Shown here piece by piece: positions 3,500 to 17,962 of a stretch of DNA of 40,660 nt. The stretch is from Patescibacteria group bacterium. GTDB lineage: Bacteria > Patescibacteriota > Minisyncoccia > Phycocordibacterales > UBA918. The notes beneath the pieces are model-generated. The model worked only from the letters and a program-made list of their open reading frames with translations, ran no database searches and was not told where the DNA came from. How positions within the stretch are numbered: position 1 is the stretch's first letter; every line of letters begins with the position of its first letter. The stretch spans positions 1 to 40,660 of the forward strand of contig WFTF01000047.1 in NCBI GenBank assembly GCA_015485575.1, written 5' to 3'. The position numbers and the translations under genes were made by a program.

Positions 3500-3570
3500 G
3501 CGGCCATGGTTAAGTGGTATAACGGGTCCTTGCCAAGGATCAGTCGGGAGTTCGATTCTCCCTGGCCGCA
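3500..3570 (+). tRNA. tRNA-Gly (anticodon GCC)
   Basis: Acceptor GCGGCCA/TGGCCGC, D stem GTTA/TAAC, anticodon loop TTGCCAA, T arm GGGAG-TTCGATT-CTCCC. No encoded CCA. Confidence 0.9.
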
Positions 3571-3575
3571 CCTAT

Positions 3576-3603
3576 AAAAAGTTCCCCGTCCGGGGAACTT
3601 TTT
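3576..3603 (+). terminator. Rho-independent terminator after tRNA-Gly(GCC)
   Basis: AAAAAGTTCCCCG-TC-CGGGGAACTTTTT. Confidence 0.8.
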
Positions 3604-3726
3604 ATAGGTTCGGTCGGGATCGTAGCTTTGTGAATACAAAGCGTTACGCGAATCGAAGGGCTTTTGTGCTAGTTTGTGAGACGGAGTCGATACAAAATAG
3701 CCAAAAGGCGTGCTGAAGCTGTAAGC

Positions 3727-3747
3727 TTCGATTCTCCCTGGCCGCAC
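3727..3747 (+). repeat. 21-nt direct duplicate of the 3' end of tRNA-Gly(GCC)
   Basis: TTCGATTCTCCCTGGCCGCAC occurs at 3551-3571 (in the tRNA) and again at 3727-3747. The second copy lacks the 5' half of the T stem, so it is not a functional tRNA. Confidence 0.85.
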
Positions 3748-3800
3748 GAGTACAAAATGAGCGCACGTCAGTGCGTCATTTTTGTTCATACAGGATTGGG

Positions 3801-3824
3801 AATTTAGGGGTCAGACCCCTAATT
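3801..3824. repeat. Palindrome family A, copy 1
   Basis: AATTTAGGGGTC-A-GACCCCTAATT. Related copies lie at 14730-14755 and 16655-16679. Confidence 0.85.
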
Positions 3825-3930: not shown

Positions 3931-4830
3931 ATGACAATGAAAAAAATCGTCCTCCCTGAGGGGGACAGTCAACGAGTTCTTTCCGCTGCACAGGGGATTT
4001 TGAATCAAGGTATTTGTCATCCGGTTTTGATCGGGGATGCTGCACATATTTGCGGTGAAATTGAAGCTCCTCTTGAGAGTTATACCGTGCTTGCGTCTGA
4101 CAGTACCGAGCTGGATCGGCTGCAAGCTGCAGCTGCAGCGAAAGGTAAAGAGCTTCGCGTTTCTGACGCATCTTTGGTACAGGGTGCTGCGTTGGTACGA
4201 GACGGGTATGCTGACGGCATTGTCGGTGGTGCTCAAACCGGAACGGATGAGGTCTTTTTGGCGTATATCAAGACTATCGGTGTGCATGAGGACGTTTCTC
4301 GTGTAACCAGCTGCTTCTTGATGGAAAAAGACAATCAGCGTTTTATTTTTGCCGATTGTGCACTCAATCCGGAATCCAACGCTTCGGAACTGGCAGAAAC
4401 GGCTTACCTGAGCGCTCAATTTGCAAAAACGGTGGGAATAGAAGAGCCTGTTGTGGCATTTCTGTCTTTTCAGACCGTTGGAAATGCGCCGCATGCGCTA
4501 ATGCAGCTTCCGCGTGATGCTGCAAAAATTGCACGTGAAACCTATGCACTGCGCGCAAACGGTCCCTTGCAGTTTGATGCGGCACTGTTGCCGGATGTTG
4601 CAAAGCGCAAGACCAAAGACTGTGACGTGGCTGGACATGCCAATGTCTTTATCTTTCCGGATCTTGAAAGTGGTAACATCGGCTACAAAATCGCCGAGCG
4701 TATGGGCGGGTTTACAGCAACAGGTCCCCTGTTTTTGGGCTTTAGAAAGCCCGCCTACGACCTGTCTCGAGGGTGTTCCGTAGAAGACATCATTTCGGTG
4801 GTGCGTATGGCGGTGCAGCATGCAGAGTAA
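3931..4830 (+). CDS. pta: Phosphate acetyl/butyryl-transferase family protein
   Basis: N-terminal IVLPEGDSQRVLSAAQ...HPVLIGD and C-terminal DLSRGCSVEDIISVV are typical of the PTA_PTB family. GGAGGA lies 7 nt upstream of the ATG at 3931 (the ORF opens at 3916). Confidence 0.8.
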   Translation: MTMKKIVLPEGDSQRVLSAAQGILNQGICHPVLIGDAAHICGEIEAPLESYTVLASDSTELDRLQAAAAAKGKELRVSDASLVQGAALVRDGYADGIVGGAQTGTDEVFLAYIKTIGVHEDVSRVTSCFLMEKDNQRFIFADCALNPESNASELAETAYLSAQFAKTVGIEEPVVAFLSFQTVGNAPHALMQLPRDAAKIARETYALRANGPLQFDAALLPDVAKRKTKDCDVAGHANVFIFPDLESGNIGYKIAERMGGFTATGPLFLGFRKPAYDLSRGCSVEDIISVVRMAVQHAE

Positions 4831-5289: not shown

Positions 5290-5378
5290 GGACAGTACTT
5301 TACAATGAGTGATTTTAGTAAAATATCCCTATAAATCAGTATTTTTAAAGGAAAATCATCGATTTTGTACTTTAATAA

Positions 5379-5432: not shown

Positions 5433-5843
5433 ATGGCAACAGGTAGTAAGAAAAATACCAAGAAAATAGGAGATTTGGGTGAAAAAATTGCTCAAAAATA
5501 CTTGCATGATAGTGGGTTTGTTATAGTTGGTACCAATTTCTGGAGGAAGTGGGGTGAAATTGACATTATTGCAAAAGATAAACAGGGAGTGTTGCGTTTT
5601 GTTGAAGTAAAATCCGTTTCATATGAAACTATCACAGACCTGGAATACGCAGTTACACATGAAACTTGGCAACCTGAGGAACAGGTACACGCACGTAAAC
5701 TTCGTCAGATAGAAAAAACCATTGCCTCATGGATCACGGAACAGAGTTACGATGGTTTATGGCAGATTGATGTACTTGCCGTGAAGATGGTTATCCCCGA
5801 AAAGTATGCATCGGTTTCGTTTATTGAAAATGTTGTGCAGTAG
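5433..5843 (+). CDS. yraN: YraN-family (UPF0102) endonuclease-like protein
   Basis: 136 aa with GDLGEKIAQKYL...GEIDIIAKD...LRFVEVKS, the typical YraN pattern. Confidence 0.8.
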   Translation: MATGSKKNTKKIGDLGEKIAQKYLHDSGFVIVGTNFWRKWGEIDIIAKDKQGVLRFVEVKSVSYETITDLEYAVTHETWQPEEQVHARKLRQIEKTIASWITEQSYDGLWQIDVLAVKMVIPEKYASVSFIENVVQ

Positions 5844-5892: not shown

Positions 5893-6290
5893 AATGAAAA
5901 TATTTATACCCAATGGATATCGCAAGTGGATGTGTAAAAATACGCACTCTGCACCTTCGTTTTCTCATGTCAGATGTTTAGCGACTTACGTATTCCGGGT
6001 GAATGAAAATTAAATAGCCCCAGTTGCTTTTTTTAAACGTGCAAGATAGAAAAACTGAACATCACTTGTTCAGTGCTGGTTATCGATATTTCTGCTCGCA
6101 ATCTCCAGAAATATCTGATGGACCTTTTGTTTTCCATCATGCTCTGACAAATTATAGTCAGAAAAAGCTCCACGTATTCGCTTTTTCTTTCTTAATTTGT
6201 ATGACCAAGCATACAAATTTCACTCACTCGGTCATAGAAATACATCTCACTCCGCTTGCTGTATTTCTACGACACTCATTCGTTCATTTG
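5893..6290 (-). ncRNA. Candidate structured non-coding region directly 3' of tRNA-Pro (copy C1 of the shared two-hairpin motif)
   Basis: No credible ORF. Several 6-10-bp hairpins are present. Hairpins at 6162-6186 and 6085-6115 are homologous to 33916-33936 and 33951-33981 with compensatory stem changes. Confidence 0.35.
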
Positions 6291-13893: not shown

Positions 13894-14565
13894 ATGACAT
13901 ATCCGGAATTAAAACAGAAAGCAATTCGCTTACGGAAAGATGGCTATTCGTATAGTATGATTTCTGAAAGACTATGTGTATCCAAAAGCACGTTACACTA
14001 CTGGTTGTCAGAAATACCCTATACAGCAAATGATGAGGTACGCCAAAGAATCGGAGAGGCGCGTGCGCGCTCGGGAGAGGTAAAACATCAGCAAAAACTT
14101 GAAACGTTTCGCCAATCGGCAAAACAGGCGAAAAAGGATATAGGTACTTTGTCGCAACGTGATTTGTTTATGCTTGGGTTGGGGATTTATATTGGAGAAG
14201 GTGAGAAAGGTGAGGTGATTGGGGTGATTAACTCTGACCCGCGTATTATTGTACTTATGATGCGGTGGTTTATGGAGGTGTGTGAGTTGAAAAAAGATAA
14301 CTTTTCAATTGCCATTCATCTATACCCCGATAACAACCAAAAACAGTGTTTGCAGTTTTGGTCTGAGGTAACCGGATTGCCACAGGCACAGTTTGGTAAA
14401 ACTCAGATTGACCGCCGGCGAAACAAAAAACAAGGAAAGCGAGGGAAGTTACCATATGGAACGGCGCATTTGCGTGTAAAGAGCAACGGACAGAAGGAGT
14501 TTGGTGTACTGTTGGCACGCAGAATTCATGCGTGGATGAAACTTGTGTTAGCGCACAAGATTTGA
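13894..14565 (+). CDS. HTH + LAGLIDADG-like protein, paralog of 2754..3422
   Basis: 223 aa with HTH-like GYSYSMISERLCVSKSTLHYWLS and LAGLIDADG-like LFMLGLGIYIGEGEKGE. The gene ends 16 nt before tRNA-Gly(UCC). Confidence 0.7.
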   Translation: MTYPELKQKAIRLRKDGYSYSMISERLCVSKSTLHYWLSEIPYTANDEVRQRIGEARARSGEVKHQQKLETFRQSAKQAKKDIGTLSQRDLFMLGLGIYIGEGEKGEVIGVINSDPRIIVLMMRWFMEVCELKKDNFSIAIHLYPDNNQKQCLQFWSEVTGLPQAQFGKTQIDRRRNKKQGKRGKLPYGTAHLRVKSNGQKEFGVLLARRIHAWMKLVLAHKI

Positions 14566-14581
14566 TATAAATGTGTGCACC

Positions 14582-14652
14582 GCGGGATTAGTTAAGTGGT
14601 ATAATGCGACGCTTCCAACGTCGAGTCAGGAGTTCGATTCCCCTATCCCGCA
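14582..14652 (+). tRNA. tRNA-Gly (anticodon UCC)
   Basis: Acceptor GCGGGAT/ATCCCGC, anticodon loop CTTCCAA, T-loop TTCGATT with one A-C mismatch in the T stem. No encoded CCA. Confidence 0.8.
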
Positions 14653-14704
14653 CAAAGGAAAACTACCGCCTTCGGGCGGATTTTTCTTTGTGCGGGATAG
14701 GGGG
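14640..14704. repeat. Inverted repeat that includes the tRNA-Gly(UCC) 3' end
   Basis: CCCCTATCCCGCACAAAG (14640-14657) pairs perfectly with CTTTGTGCGGGATAGGGG (14687-14704). An inner CCGCC-TTCG-GGCGG hairpin is followed by TTTTT. Confidence 0.8.
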
Positions 14705-14720
14705 TGCAGCGTCGCACCAC

Positions 14721-14757
14721 TTTTTTAAAAATTTAGGGGTCGGACCCCCTAAATTAA
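14721..14757. repeat. Left direct repeat of the island (palindrome A, copy 2)
   Basis: TTTTTTAAAAATTTAGGGGTCGGACCCCCTAAATTAA. The near-identical copy is at 16647-16681. Confidence 0.85.
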
Positions 14758-14840
14758 CGTCTTGTACTTTCCGGTTGTGTTTTTCTTTTCTCTATCAGTT
14801 TGAAAATTCCAACAAACTGAATTGAAATTCTCAAAAGATA

Positions 14841-14863
14841 GGACGAGCCAAATAGGCTCGTCC
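14841..14863 (-). terminator. Terminator of the 412-aa ORF
   Basis: On the minus strand: GGACGAGCC-TATTT-GGCTCGTCC followed by TATCTTTTGAG, 10 nt after the stop codon. Confidence 0.65.
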
Positions 14864-14872
14864 AATTGATAC

Positions 14873-16111
14873 TCAGGCCGCCGACTTCTGCGCGGTGTGG
14901 CATCGATAGAGTTTCATCGCCACGTTCCGAACCAGGCTGTACTCCAGATGCGGAATCAGCCACATTGCTGGAATCCACCGACGATCAGACCAGCCACGTT
15001 CCCGCAACCACGACTCGGTCCCTGCCGAGCAGTTACCGGCACGGTAGCTGTCCTCTCGGATGACCAGCGGGCAGAACCCGTGTTCGCCGTTGAGGAAGCC
15101 GACGAGGTCAGCGTGTTTCGCTACCAGTTCGTCTTGGCGTTTCCATGCGCGAAGCGCTTCACGAAGCGCTTCGCGTGGGCCACCCCAGTTGCTGTGGTAC
15201 GTCCGACCGTTGGTCGAGCGAACCAAGAACTGGAAATCGACGCCGATCTGATGGCCACGCCGACTCATCTGGGGGATGGCGATGCGGAACACCTCCGTTC
15301 CCAGCTTCACCAAGCGCGGCTCCTCCTCGCGGCGAGATTCGACTCCGTCACTCTCGTCGGCCACCTTGCACAGGTGGTAATCAACGAGCCATTCGCGCGC
15401 CTCTCGGTAGCTCCTGAAGTGGGAGTTCCCGGAGAGCGAGATCGCGGTGGCGATGACAGCGGCCTTGCCCGCCTGGTCGGTGATCATTAGGGCCTGAGCG
15501 ATGGACGCCCAGGAGGGCTTCTGCCCCTCGAAGGCACGCAGGATGGTCTCGGCGCGGTGTTTCACCTTCCAGAGTTTCCGCTCGAGCTTACCCGGCGATG
15601 GGTTACGCGCGGCGAAGTCCCACAGGTGCAGCGTGGTGCGACGAGCCCACATGCCGCGAGAAGACTGGGTCTTCTCGACTACCTTGCGGACGCCGTACAG
15701 ATCGGCAGCGGCTTTGAGCCAGCCGCAGAACCGCTGCACCTTTTTCACGACCTTCTCCGCACCTGCGCGACTGGCGTAGCGCGGGTAGCTGCCGGGCGCC
15801 ACGTTGGCGTTCACCATGTTCTCGATATTCCATGGGATGTTGGTGAACCCGGAGTCCTCGACTGCCCGGTGAACCAGATCGGAGAGGTGCGACCAGTCAA
15901 TGGTCACACCATCCCCCTGGAAATACTCCTTGTCAGTGATGGGGCACTGGAAGCGTCGAAAGGAGGAGCGTCGGACATAGCGCTCCTCGTAAACCGCCTC
16001 ATCGGCGATTTGTTTGAGGGTCATAGACCCGTCAAGGCCGTAGTCCGCGTCGGTGGCGGACATGATAAGGTGCTGGCGACGGGTGGTGTTGGTGTAAGCG
16101 TTCAGTGACAT
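14873..16111 (-). CDS. Hypothetical 412-aa protein of unrecognised family, with G/C-biased third codon positions
   Basis: It is the longest ORF in the G+C-rich segment. GAGGAGG lies about 5 nt upstream of the ATG. G/C-ending codons (CTG, GGC, CGC, ACC, AAC, ATC) are strongly preferred, unlike neighbouring genes. Confidence 0.75.
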   Translation of the reverse strand: MSLNAYTNTTRRQHLIMSATDADYGLDGSMTLKQIADEAVYEERYVRRSSFRRFQCPITDKEYFQGDGVTIDWSHLSDLVHRAVEDSGFTNIPWNIENMVNANVAPGSYPRYASRAGAEKVVKKVQRFCGWLKAAADLYGVRKVVEKTQSSRGMWARRTTLHLWDFAARNPSPGKLERKLWKVKHRAETILRAFEGQKPSWASIAQALMITDQAGKAAVIATAISLSGNSHFRSYREAREWLVDYHLCKVADESDGVESRREEEPRLVKLGTEVFRIAIPQMSRRGHQIGVDFQFLVRSTNGRTYHSNWGGPREALREALRAWKRQDELVAKHADLVGFLNGEHGFCPLVIREDSYRAGNCSAGTESWLRERGWSDRRWIPAMWLIPHLEYSLVRNVAMKLYRCHTAQKSAA

Positions 16112-16545
16112 TTGTCCTCCTCGGGCACTCGTTTGTGGCCCAATTGAAGTTGGTAGAGCGCGAGCGCATCAAGTGCGCTCAATGGGGTGTTTAACGTCCA
16201 GGAGGTCAGAACCAGACGGGAGTGTAGATACTCCACACCAGCTTTGACTAATCAAAGCCAAAGTGGAATATCTACGTTCCGTCCTATGCCTAAGTATCAA
16301 ATTGTAAAGAACAAACTATTCGTCCTTGTTTTTTCGCAAGGACATTAACGGGCACAAACGATGGTCCGATTCGTTTGTGTCCGGTATATGTCCGAACGAA
16401 TATTGTTATTGGAGGAACTGACTGCAACACATTGCTACTTGAGTCAAAACGTTTGTAACCAGGTATGAGTTTATGCAAGTGAGGAATCGCAATCATTTTG
16501 TACCTGCCAACAGTTTTTTCAGGTACCTCACTACAGAATATTGTA
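16112..16545 (-). ncRNA. Long structured 5' leader or candidate ncRNA upstream of the 412-aa ORF
   Basis: Hairpins are a 24-bp interrupted rod at 16215-16284, a hairpin at 16162-16180, a hairpin at 16351-16382, a terminator-like hairpin at 16322-16343 and a hairpin at 16500-16526. The consensus promoter lies just upstream. Confidence 0.45.
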
Positions 16546-16552
16546 TTTTTCG

Positions 16553-16581
16553 ATTATATCATATATACAGTATTATGTCAA
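16553..16581 (-). promoter_or_regulatory. Consensus sigma-70 promoter (TTGACA - 17 nt - TATAAT) firing toward the 412-aa ORF
   Basis: The minus strand reads TTGACAtaatactgtatatatgaTATAAT, with the -35 at 16576-16581 and the -10 at 16553-16558. Confidence 0.6.
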
Positions 16582-16646
16582 TCTATTGTACGGTATCACC
16601 CAAAATGCAACAGGGTATTCTATGAAAAGAAAGAGATGTGCGCATG

Positions 16647-16690
16647 TTTTTTATAATTTAGGGGTCCGACCCCTAAATTACCCCTAAATT
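16647..16690. repeat. Right direct repeat of the island (palindrome A, copy 3, plus an extra half-arm)
   Basis: TTTTTTATAATTTAGGGGTCCGACCCCTAAATTA followed by a tandem CCCCTAAATT. Confidence 0.85.
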
Positions 16691-16740
16691 ATAAATTACG
16701 AGTGTGGTGTGTGCGTGTTTTTTGGGCTGTGTGACATAAA

Positions 16741-16771
16741 GAATAAAACCCCCGGCTGAGGGGTTTTATTC
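16741..16771. terminator. 12-bp hairpin terminator
   Basis: GAATAAAACCCC - 7 nt - GGGGTTTTATTC. Confidence 0.6.
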
Positions 16772-16898
16772 AAAAAATGTGTGATGGGAAATAGCGCAGA
16801 ATTACTCTTTGTTTTTCCACATAGCGTAATACCTCCGCTACGTTTGTAAGTATAACACAGAGTAGTACATGCTGTCGTGTGGATAGTGCCGCGTATAG

Positions 16899-16925
16899 AA
16901 AAAACCGGCTATGCACCGGCTTTTT
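16899..16925 (-). terminator. Weak terminator directly after hup
   Basis: AAAAAACCGG...CCGGCTTTTT. The GC stem is short, has one bulge, and is flanked by A and T runs. Confidence 0.4.
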
Positions 16926-16942
16926 CTGTGTGAGAAATAGAA

Positions 16943-17215
16943 TTATTTCACCGCGTCTTTGAGAGCTTTTGCCGCTCGGAACTTTGGTACACGCATTGCC
17001 GGCACTTCAATCGGTTCACCGGTTCGTGGATTGCGCGCGGTGCGCGCGTTGCGCATTTTTGCTGAGAAAATACCAAGTCCCGCGATTGATACCTCTTGAC
17101 CTGCCTTAAGGGTCTCAACGATAGAAGTCATCATAACTTCTACAGCGCGCTCAGCGTCAGCTTTTGTAATCCCGAGTTCCTCGTGGATTTTGTTAATGAT
17201 GTCTGCCTTATTCAT
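16943..17215 (-). CDS. hup: HU/IHF-family DNA-binding protein
   Basis: 90 aa, MNKADIINKI...GLGIFSAKMRNARTARNPRTGEPIEVPA, the canonical HU arm. Confidence 0.95.
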   Translation of the reverse strand: MNKADIINKIHEELGITKADAERAVEVMMTSIVETLKAGQEVSIAGLGIFSAKMRNARTARNPRTGEPIEVPAMRVPKFRAAKALKDAVK

Positions 17216-17395
17216 ATTTGTTTCTGAATAGTAACTAATGGCGAGTAAACATTTTGTGTTGGTGTAGACCAGACACGGTGCCCTAATGGCTTGAAAACAT
17301 TATATAGCAAGGTTTTTTCCCTGCAACGTCTAGAAAAGACCTGTTTCTATGGTCTAATGTTTTTCTTTGTTTTTGAAGCATGGTATGCTTGCGTG

Positions 17396-17962
17396 ATGAA
17401 AATTGGAATCATGGGAGCCAAGGGTAGTTTCTCCGAGAAGGCGGCGGAGGACTACATTGCACAGCAGTTTATAGACAATTGCAGCATCGTACCGTTAGTG
17501 AGCGCGGAAAATGTATTGTCCGAAGTGGAGTCGGGCACTATTGATAAGGGGATTTTTCCGATTGAAAACAGCAATGGAGGTGTGGTACTGGAGGCGGTAC
17601 ACGCCATGGCAAAGCATCGCTTTGCCATAGAGCGTCTGTTTGAAATTGATGTGCACCACATGTTGCTGGTACTGCCGGGTAGTACCGCATCCCGTATTGA
17701 CACCATTACCTCGCACGATCAGGCGCTGAAGCAGTGCCGCATGTACCTTAAACGCGCTTGGCCGGACGCGGATATTGAACCGTATGCAGATACGGCAAAA
17801 GCGGCGGAGGATTTAAGCAGGGGAGTACTGTCGGATAGTACCGCTGTTATTGCACCGCGCCGCTGTGCGGAGATTTATGGACTTGAGATACTGGAAGAAT
17901 CCATACAGGATTTGAAGTTTAACTACACCTCCTTTGTGGTGGCAACACGCTTGGAGGAGTAG
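17396..17962 (+). CDS. Prephenate dehydratase (PDT) domain protein without an ACT domain
   Basis: KIGIMGAKGSFSEKAA, TSHDQALKQC, and NYTSF where PDTs usually have N-x-TRF. The ORF opens at TTG 17291, and the ATG at 17396 fits the PDT N-terminus. Confidence 0.7.
   Translation: MKIGIMGAKGSFSEKAAEDYIAQQFIDNCSIVPLVSAENVLSEVESGTIDKGIFPIENSNGGVVLEAVHAMAKHRFAIERLFEIDVHHMLLVLPGSTASRIDTITSHDQALKQCRMYLKRAWPDADIEPYADTAKAAEDLSRGVLSDSTAVIAPRRCAEIYGLEILEESIQDLKFNYTSFVVATRLEE

Follow-up and report, generated by a model that had tools for sequence, protein, structure and literature searches.

A conserved structured leader ahead of an uncharacterised gene family in candidate-phyla-radiation and predatory bacteria

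The locus and its conserved leader

The DNA analysed here, called the window, comprises 40,660 nt of contig WFTF01000047.1 from a Patescibacteria group bacterium (assembly GCA_015485575.1). On its minus strand it carries an open reading frame (ORF) of 412 aa (14873..16111) from an uncharacterised family, preceded by a long leader and a strong promoter. An initial annotation, made from the sequence alone, had treated this leader of about 435 nt as one structured unit. For comparison, 29 homologous loci were fetched, which represent about 15 independent lineages and are cited below by L numbers. Only the proximal ~190 nt of the leader (16313..16116) are conserved upstream of homologues of the 412-aa ORF. 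This part is structured on the sense strand into the ribosome-binding site, a covarying helix closes its 5′ end onto the stop codon, and the ORF in between contains an excess of conserved structure. All RNA features described in the following are given on the minus strand.

In L002 the leader is 79% identical over 165 nt and the protein 63% identical, and in L005 the corresponding values are 82% over 85 nt and 44%. The non-coding block is therefore better conserved (79-82%) than the protein (44-63%). A covariance model of the leader (R1) matches once in the window and otherwise only upstream of family members. The earlier suggestion that the proximal ~180 nt travel with the ORF is borne out by these identities, by the covariation of the stems and by the distribution of the model matches; conserved upstream structure, the lack of which in homologues had been named as an argument against a functional RNA, was found. 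The leader of ~435 nt did not hold as a unit, since its distal half, with three of the five stems listed at the time, is specific to the lineage.

Both halves of the leader were folded in comparison with dinucleotide shuffles. The proximal 221 nt reach a z-score of -5.3 and the plus strand of the same region one of -5.4. As both strands fold equally well, thermodynamics cannot tell which of them matters. The base pairs themselves are more informative: for the hairpins P1 and P2, compared in four lineages, the sense strand has 25 G·U cells and 2 mismatches, whereas the antisense strand has 26 mismatches. Because G·U cells become A·C mismatches on the antisense strand, the leader structure belongs to the sense strand of the ORF and hence to the transcript.

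The conserved leader begins with the 5′ motif UGUUCUUUACAAUUUGAUACUUAGGC (16313..16288), the 3′ part of which (16304..16288) is the 5′ strand of the closing helix. This motif is kept in the window, L002, L019 and L005 and partly in L026, L010 and L011. It is followed by the rod P1 (16224..16275), composed of a 12-bp helix GUAGAUAUUCCAC/GUGGAGUAUCUAC with one U·G pair, an internal loop, a 7-bp helix and a tetraloop. A rod of helices with near-symmetric loops had been described at this place (16283..16215); the rod exists, but the supposed TT/AG internal loop is formed by a U-A pair and a U·G pair, so that the outer helix has 12 continuous pairs. An optional outer extension of P1 pairs GACGG (16283..16279) with CCGUC (16219..16215) and overlaps the 5′ arm of P2. 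Pair counts on the RNAalifold structure of P1 in four lineages gave 62 Watson-Crick, 16 G·U and 2 mismatched cells for the sense strand and 17 mismatches for the antisense strand. The 5′ side of the P1 internal loop, CUUUGG, is invariant across lineages, and in other lineages the position of P1 is taken by rods with a different sequence.

The hairpin P2, CGUCUGG-[UUCUGACCUC]-CUGGACG (16218..16195), is followed by UUAAAC, which reaches to 16189. In eight aligned lineages (alignment A8) the loop GACC is invariant and UWAAA follows the hairpin; loop and 3′ arm contain an anti-Shine-Dalgarno-like CCUCCU. In these lineages 96% of the cells of P2 are paired, compared with 27-51% when the partner is slid, and the covariation score is 0.31 versus at most 0.08. 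A ninth lineage (L029) has kept CGUC...GACG-UAAA with a different loop. Hairpin P3, GAGCGCA-CUUGA-UGCGCUC (16162..16180), was tabulated by hand because it was misaligned by MAFFT; a hairpin of 6-9 bp occupies this position in nine lineages, with eight different arm sequences. Directly 3′ of P3 lies GCGCUCUACC (16152..16161), a single-stranded CUCUAYC element that occurs in the window, L002, L019, L005, L025, L016 and L009; in L025 and L016 CUCUACC is located 2-3 nt from the Shine-Dalgarno (SD) sequence. The last hairpin, P4 (GGGCCAC-AAACGA-GUGCCC, 16141..16123), abuts the SD GAGGAGG (16122..16116), with the AUG at 16111. P4-like hairpins abut the SD in L002, L019, L009 and L029 as well. The leader adjoins the SD directly, with no terminator between them. 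In L010, L011, L009, L026 and L029 the same layout of strong promoter, short 5′ motif, long rod, small hairpins and SD is realised with different sequences.

The predicted probability of an unpaired SD is 0.03 in the window, 0.10 in L002 and 0.4-1.0 in several other lineages. Its predicted partner is the CUCCU of P2 in the window and L002, and the CUCU of CUCUACC in L016 and L009. Folds in which P2 is forced lie 0-7.6 kcal/mol above the minimum free energy (MFE). Rfam 15 was searched at expect values (E) up to 10 in window positions 14000-17500 and L019 positions 1000-2900, and at E up to 0.1 in the whole window. The Rfam check proposed in the initial annotation yielded only tRNAs for the locus and the window; the 5′ leader matched no riboswitch or self-cleaving ribozyme class and gave only noise at E up to 10.

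Closing helix, structured reading frame and 3′ end

The 3′ strand of the closing helix, GCCUGAGUAUCAAUUG (14863..14878), includes the UGA stop codon. The helix was assessed by an ungapped inverted-repeat search and by MFE folding of the whole unit. The inverted-repeat search pairs UUGAUACUUAGGC (16300..16288) with GCCUGAGUAUCAA (14878..14866) through 13 contiguous pairs, one of them U·G, and in the MFE structure of the window the helix is extended to 16 pairs with a 1-nt bulge. Homologous helices have 14 bp in L002, 10 bp in L019 and 14 bp with two G·U pairs in L005. The helix covaries in these four lineages, with compensatory changes that include G-C to A-U. Thus, the middle base of the stop codon is found in a C-G pair in L019 and L005 (UGA), in a U·G pair in the window (UGA) and in a U-A pair in L002 (UAA). 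In the whole-unit MFE structures of the window, L019, L005 and L026 the closing helix bounds a single exterior domain with the entire ORF inside, and analogous complementarities between 5′ and 3′ parts are present in other registers in L026, L015 and L029. A search of the leader for complementarity to the flanks, as had been proposed, recovered this intramolecular helix between 5′ motif and stop codon and no other complementarity of at least 12 nt. Conservation runs beyond both strands of the helix, which are therefore not transposon ends. The closing helix had been missed in the first reading of the sequence, as had the ORF-wide structure and the 3′ hammerhead of the relatives described below.

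The RNA of the ORF is highly structured. For the ORF, synonymous-codon shuffles were used as control, which keep protein and codon usage. The z-score is -5.95 in the window, and the homologues gave -8.6 (L019), -7.6 (L005), -10.7 (L026), -11.3 (L016), -5.8 (L010), -5.5 (L025) and -4.6 (L023); three host genes of the window lie between -0.6 and -2.2. The antisense strand of the ORF folds more weakly (z = -3.4 and -4.5). A codon alignment of six homologues with 57% nucleotide identity has a consensus-structure energy of -113.8, versus -54.6 +/- 3.9 for shuffles of codon columns (z = -15); the homologues thus have their structure at shared positions. Compensatory pairs were found in a 15-bp hairpin (15389..15350) and in a 13-bp helix that spans 691 nt (15724..15709 with 15027..15012). 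The effect of structure in the ORF is real. Its predicted fold is branched, and a rod-like fold of the viroid or Obelisk type was rejected, as no more than 9-14% of the pairs fall on the best rod axis. The ORF also contains a perfect palindrome of 13 nt/13 nt, CGCGAAGCGCTTC/GAAGCGCTTCGCG (15148-15175), which encodes REALREALR and is one of many hairpins in the coding sequence.

With 62% G+C and a G+C content at third codon positions (GC3) of 0.77, the ORF of the window lies above its host (47%). In 11 of 12 loci the ORF lies about 5-20 G+C points above the host flanks, and in L015 it equals them. The excess is attributed to selection for stable pairing and not only to recent transfer.

L002, L019 and L005 share a conserved 3′ untranslated region (UTR) consisting of hairpins, among them UGAGGAGC...GCUCCUCA, and a subsequent type III hammerhead. 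The latter was recognised by inspection as ACUCUC|UCGGGAU-GUGU-AUCCCGA-CUGAUGA-GUCC-AAAA-GGAC-GAAA-GAGU. The hammerhead core (CUGAUGA...GAAA), three stems, the NUH triplet and an open stem III are present in all three lineages, and cleavage is predicted. Altogether, type III hammerheads stand 50-110 nt after the stop codon in five lineages (L019, L005, L002, L023 and L026). With the Rfam model RF00008, L019 scores 45.0 bits (E = 4e-8) and the other four score 37-41 bits (lowest 37.2; E to 2e-4), all of which is below the gathering threshold of 48.5 bits. The 85-nt block of 3′ hairpin and hammerhead is 87-94% identical (L019 2602-2686, L026 3722-3806, L002 5260-5345, L023 4077-4163). Because the proteins are only about 45-50% identical, the comparison would imply either very strong constraint or a recent exchange of the module. 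The island in L005 has two type III hammerheads, one after an unrelated 127-aa ORF (3557-3611) and one after the family ORF (5307-5361). Each of them is followed by a terminator-like hairpin and a repeated palindrome, and NYN, RhuM, DUF3800 and SNase genes lie nearby.

No hammerhead was found in the window, either at E up to 0.1 in its full length or at E up to 10 in 14000-17500, and the 3′ UTR of the relatives has no blastn match there. The homology to the relatives ends right after GUAUCAA. In place of their hairpin and hammerhead, a terminator scan detected an intrinsic-terminator-like hairpin of host type (14841..14863), which together with the next 70 nt (window 14782-14863) is 83% identical to L002 2542-2607, the 3′ flank of an unrelated 169-aa gene. 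The copy of the window is derived, its 3′ module having been lost, and since homology ends after GUAUCAA, the conserved unit in this genome is 16313..14863, leader plus ORF. The loci of the window and of L002, the latter from a metagenome-assembled genome (MAG) of Saccharibacteria, are both located between prephenate dehydratase and MscS-like genes; this shared position suggests that the interval is a recombination-prone variable region.

Promoter, distal leader, protein family and neighbourhood

The sigma-70-type promoter occupies 16553..16581, with TTGACA at 16581..16576, a 17-nt spacer carrying TG before the -10 box, and TATAAT at 16558..16553. The reported 12/12 match to the consensus was confirmed. 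No other site in the window comes within one mismatch of the consensus at a spacing of 17 nt; shuffled sequences give 0.31 sites of this quality, so that an exact match is far rarer. Promoter activity is predicted from the match to TTGACA/TATAAT at a distance of 16-18 nt. The end of the -10 box is 441 nt from the ATG, from which the leader length of about 435 nt follows. On the plus strand no promoter-like site was found in 16100-16600. Promoters of at least 11/12 with a 17-nt spacer, on the same strand and at most 500 nt upstream, are present in 7 of 16 homologous loci, two of them being 12/12, and the background for matches of at least 10/12 is 0.11 per kb-strand. Given these seven loci, strong transcription appears to be a trait of the family. 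Promoter sequences and their distances from the gene vary among the loci: in L002 and L005 a mere 25 nt or so separate the conserved block from a near-consensus promoter upstream of it, and in L019 such a promoter lies about 190 nt upstream of the conserved motif. The distant promoter is therefore not unique to the window.

The distal leader (16314..16546) comprises the stem GTACCTG/CAGGTAC (16526..16500), the stem CACAAACGA/TCGTTTGTG (16386..16346), the stem GTCCTTG/CAAGGAC (16344..16321), which the scan flagged as terminator-like, and a 68-aa ORF (16496..16290). These three stems, like the rod and P3 (16180..16162), exist as listed in the initial annotation. However, the distal ~230 nt match only L001, a contig near-identical to the window, and no similarity was found upstream of the other homologues. 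The differences between L001 and the window are ordinary and scattered, with no targeted hypermutation between the two. The distal 232 nt have a fold z-score of -3.2. The hairpin 16344..16321 had been called attenuator-like; it is absent from the homologous loci, and the T tract in its tail AAUAGUUUGU is interrupted (AAUAGUUUGUUC). A coding role had also been considered for this region, but the homologue search with the 68-aa ORF found none and we rejected this explanation. What precedes the conserved unit, the 12/12 promoter and the distal 230 nt, has been added specifically in this lineage. In addition, the distal hairpin at 16346-16386 carries GGACACAAACGA (16371-16382), a near copy of the 5′ arm and loop of P4, GGCCACAAACGA (16129-16140). 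Because of this near copy, the 3′ arm of the distal hairpin could pair with P4 and remodel the region beside the SD.

For the 412-aa ORF we found 31 close homologues, and a profile search gave 425 clusters at 50% identity. The ORF, 30 homologues and 10 longer family members had no match in Pfam, PHROG, NCBIfam or PADLOC. The AlphaFold (AF2) model has a predicted local distance difference test (pLDDT) score of 89.7. Foldseek found no match at E up to 0.001 in PDB and BFVD, and its top matches, beta-lactamases and NTF2-like proteins, were taken as noise (TM 0.1-0.3); a sequence profile search of PDB was negative as well. Conserved protein motifs include KTQSxRG, PSPGxLERxLW, GKAAVIA, D-x-S-D-G-V, GRTYH and DSYxAGNCxxGTExW. 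Genome matches are MAGs of Saccharibacteria, Paceibacterota and Bdellovibrionales. The tblastn searches of plasmids and phages gave no match, nor did viral contigs searched with the protein and with a DNA pattern of P2.

The neighbouring genes in the window are HU and a tRNA, and none is conserved among the loci. A 223-aa protein (13894-14565, plus strand) with an IS630/HTH_23-like N-terminal helix-turn-helix lies beside the tRNA and the ORF locus; it is also present in L001 and missing from the other homologous loci. Kinship of two 223-aa ORFs beside palindromes was considered and rejected, as they are unrelated. The ORF locus is flanked by near-identical palindromic repeats, TTTTTAAAAATTTAGGGGTCGGACCCC, at 14722-14748 and 16647-16673, and a third copy is located at 3800-3824 near another tRNA-Gly. 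For this reason the flanking 27-nt palindromes were rejected as ends of an element. L005 has analogous palindromes (3718-3745, 5559-5586 and 6122-6149) and a 107-nt repeat between successive gene cassettes. The palindromic repeats resemble bidirectional terminators, or else recombination sites at the borders of variable cassettes. The 3′ end of tRNA-Gly(tcc) with the following AAAGGAAAA (14640-14662) has a 23-nt inverted copy 18 nt downstream (14681-14703) that is 96% complementary, so that a long hairpin results. The last ~21 nt of tRNA-Gly(gcc) (3500-3572), TTCGATTCTCCCTGGCCGCAC, are directly repeated ~165 nt downstream (about 3727-3747), which looks like an att-type integration scar. In the Bdellovibrionales locus L010 (about 2843-2860 and about 4540-4555) and in L011, an inverted repeat of ~10 nt, ATGGCTTAAT/ATTGAGCCAT, brackets the cassette including the promoter. 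This repeat is distinct from the helix that the Saccharibacteria-type copies form at the RNA level.

A proposed cis-acting control region and its alternatives

Our preferred, still tentative reading is that the proximal leader is the cis-acting control end of a self-locking, nuclease-protected and heavily folded mRNA, which is spread horizontally as a single-gene unit. An RNA would be made from the strong promoter, as its consensus match suggests. Its leader would fold into P1 to P4, and CCUCCU in P2 and CUCUACC after P3 would hold the SD in a helix. The P1 extension (GACGG/CCGUC) takes the 5′ arm of P2 and would thus compete with this hairpin. Pairing of the 5′ motif with the stop-codon region, which the covariation demonstrates, would place the whole ORF inside one closed domain, and the many conserved hairpins that the statistics show within the ORF would compact the RNA. 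In the relatives, the 3′ hairpin and the type III hammerhead would set the 3′ end by predicted cleavage, a task that probably falls to the host-type terminator in the copy of the window. The net effect may be a long-lived, nuclease-protected message whose translation is locked until a trigger opens the SD. This could be done by the encoded protein on binding the GACC hairpin, by a ligand, or by melting of the closing helix through ribosomes or processing; autoregulation by the protein at the GACC hairpin would be our first guess.

Parts of such an arrangement are familiar from other systems. In the type I toxin-antitoxin system hok/sok, the mRNA of a membrane toxin of ~50 aa is inhibited by folding back on itself and is controlled by an antisense RNA. 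By analogy, our unit shares with hok the 5′-3′ pairing and would share a strong promoter and a compact stable transcript; the SD is predicted to be sequestered in the window and in L002, and events at the 3′ end would be expected to change the fold. However, the ORF here encodes 412 aa and not a membrane toxin of ~50 aa, no promoter of an antisense RNA was found, the 3′ end in the relatives would be generated by a hammerhead instead of exonuclease trimming, the structure extends through an ORF of 1.2 kb, and there is no sequence homology. Genome-wide ordered structure is known from single-stranded RNA (ssRNA) phages (Leviviricetes) and other RNA genomes. As in these, structure pervades the coding RNA, and long-distance interactions and hairpins at the ribosome-binding site would gate translation; unlike them, the present RNA stems from chromosomal DNA, contains one ORF only and lacks homology to replicase or coat proteins. 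Surveys by the Breaker and Weinberg groups have reportedly described 5′ UTR motifs specific for one gene family, such as the DUF3800 motifs. Our leader resembles them as a covarying, presumably cis-regulatory motif only upstream of one family without functional annotation, but it has no Rfam match and is coupled to stop-codon pairing and to ORF structure.

Hammerheads that flank single genes in bacterial prophage regions were described by Perreault et al. 2011 (PMC3088659), who proposed that they process RNA to gene-length mRNAs; the identities of the genes near such hammerheads are not constant. The hammerheads just after the gene in L002, L005, L019, L023 and L026, and in L005 after two successive genes, correspond to this arrangement. 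They differ in that the ribozyme block keeps to a single protein family, where it is accompanied by a conserved 5′ leader and a closing helix, that the hosts are MAGs of Saccharibacteria, Paceibacterota and Bdellovibrionales with no phage signal, and that the copy of the window lacks the ribozyme. In the literature, the same publication was the only general precedent that we found for the motif or for hammerheads in these phyla. The combination of leader, cyclisation helix at the stop codon, whole-ORF structure, 3′ hammerhead and a protein family without relatives was not found described.

Several points weigh against the cis-regulatory reading. The pairing of SD and anti-SD cannot covary and is weak or absent in L005, L029 and L011, so the lock is not shown to be general. 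The six-sequence z-score of -15 comes without a matched control; in pairwise comparisons, host-gene controls gave -0.5 and -2.8 versus -3.9 and -4.6 for the ORF. Moreover, the number of independent lineages is small (4-9), the details of MFE structures predicted for RNAs of ~1.4 kb cannot be relied on, and the transcription start site, the RNA ends and the ribozyme cleavage are inferred. Nothing shows that the 412-aa protein needs tight repression. The conserved structure of the whole ORF exceeds what a translational lock needs, and the RNA itself may have a role.

Following this last point, the RNA could be the functional or transmissible product, processed by the hammerhead, bound or packaged by its own protein, maybe circularised, exported or copied back to DNA, with P1 and P2 as recognition or packaging signals. 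The conserved structure across the entire ORF would then correspond to that of ssRNA phages or other structured RNA genomes, and the helix between 5′ end and stop codon to a cyclisation element. Furthermore, the span conserved between loci is that of a transcript, from 5′ motif to 3′ UTR. The type III hammerheads of the relatives, in L005 on both sides of the unit, the identity of the 3′ block compared with that of the proteins, and the G+C excess of the ORF over its flanks point in the same direction. However, every copy seen is chromosomal DNA among ordinary genes, and no reverse transcriptase, RNA-dependent RNA polymerase or capsid-like fold was found; the viral contigs, phages and plasmids searched were negative. 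The predicted fold is branched and not rod-like, the copy of the window has lost the ribozyme with its ORF intact, and the hammerhead upstream of the unit in L005 is that of the preceding gene and has no counterpart in other loci. We regard this explanation as unlikely. Its most elaborate form seems quite unlikely: a DNA-encoded but RNA-centred element, in which a ribozyme-terminated, end-cyclising RNA of ~1.5 kb forms a ribonucleoprotein with its own novel-fold protein and is perhaps packaged, circularised or transferred. The leader hairpins would act as recognition signals, and episymbiotic or predatory bacteria (Saccharibacteria, Paceibacterota, Bdellovibrionales) might conceivably pass the element on to their hosts or prey. 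It is also rather improbable that the 12/12 promoter drives a separate transcript of ~225 nt ending at the hairpin 16344..16321, while the ORF unit starts weakly near the 5′ motif. The distal region is not conserved with the unit, the terminator-like hairpin is placed exactly at the boundary, and -10-like hexamers occur in the motif (TACAAT in the window, TATAAT in L005). The -10 boxes of L010, L011 and L023, located 4-6 nt before the GUUC/GUUU with which the motif starts, suggest that the RNA normally begins there. On the other hand, the T tract after the hairpin is interrupted, no -35 element precedes TACAAT, the promoter of L019 is likewise about 190 nt upstream of the motif, and the distal part has neither an Rfam family nor a conserved ORF.

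A metabolite or ion aptamer formed by P1 to P3, and thereby a new riboswitch class with an SD-sequestering expression platform, would account for the invariant unpaired GACC loop, UWAAA and CUCUACC between covarying stems, for two near-isoenergetic folds and for the occluded SD in the predicted ground state. We judge it distinctly improbable, considering that the motif is found only before this one gene family, that P1 and the loops differ greatly among subfamilies, which is unusual for a ligand pocket, and that the stop-codon helix and the ORF structure are left unexplained; no known class in Rfam matches. The initial annotation had pointed to a resemblance to retrons, IS110 elements and other RNA-partnered systems, in which the RNA would be a trans-acting guide or partner of the protein. 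As in IS110 bridge RNA, IscB omega-RNA (HEARO) and retrons, a structured RNA, here including a rod with internal loops, lies directly upstream of a single gene and is inherited with it. Nothing beyond this speaks for such a partnership. For retrons, no RVT or other Pfam domain was found in the 412-aa ORF or in 30 homologues, and the Rfam scan returned no retron family, although no specific search for the a1/a2 inverted repeats of an msr-msd was made. For IS110, neither a DEDD (RuvC-like) or Tnp recombinase in Pfam nor a fold match in PDB was detected, and variable target or donor loops are missing; for the omega-RNA of IscB/TnpB there was no Rfam match at E up to 10 and no RuvC or HNH domain. 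Moreover, the invariant CUUUGG of P1 leaves no hypervariable guide-like segment in view, apart from the stop-codon helix within the same transcript there is no long complementarity to the flanks, and the RNA is contiguous with the ribosome-binding site. A guide RNA is thus very improbable. Finally, the inverted repeats of 13 bp could be transposon ends and the rod a hairpin of single-stranded DNA or an origin. The repeats bracket the ORF with the stop codon in the right repeat, as in many IS elements, and palindromic 27-nt repeats flank the locus. This is hardly credible to us: conservation passes both repeats, into UGUUCUUUAC on the 5′ side and into the 3′ UTR and hammerhead on the 3′ side, and the helices depend on G·U pairs, in place of which the opposite strand would have A·C mismatches. 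Neither target-site duplications nor multiple copies were seen, and the 27-nt palindrome recurs in the window near another tRNA. An IS-type transposon was rejected on the grounds of the conservation outside both repeats and the single copy in the window.

If the cis-regulatory reading is true, the leader would be a new and widespread motif with a long-range mRNA architecture, associated with 425 protein clusters. To our knowledge, the other cases of conserved structure on such a scale are mostly RNA viruses and very small toxin mRNAs. The unit would then be a natural self-contained gene with its own promoter, a translational lock and a 3′ end made by a ribozyme, which could work after transfer between very different hosts. 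If the RNA were instead the centre of the system, it would represent a new class of element. P2 with its GACC loop, CUCUACC, the closing helix and the hammerhead offer entry points for experiments. The protein family, with its confidently predicted but unmatched fold, occurs in bacteria of the candidate phyla radiation and in predatory bacteria, in which, as far as we know, very little gene regulation has been described.

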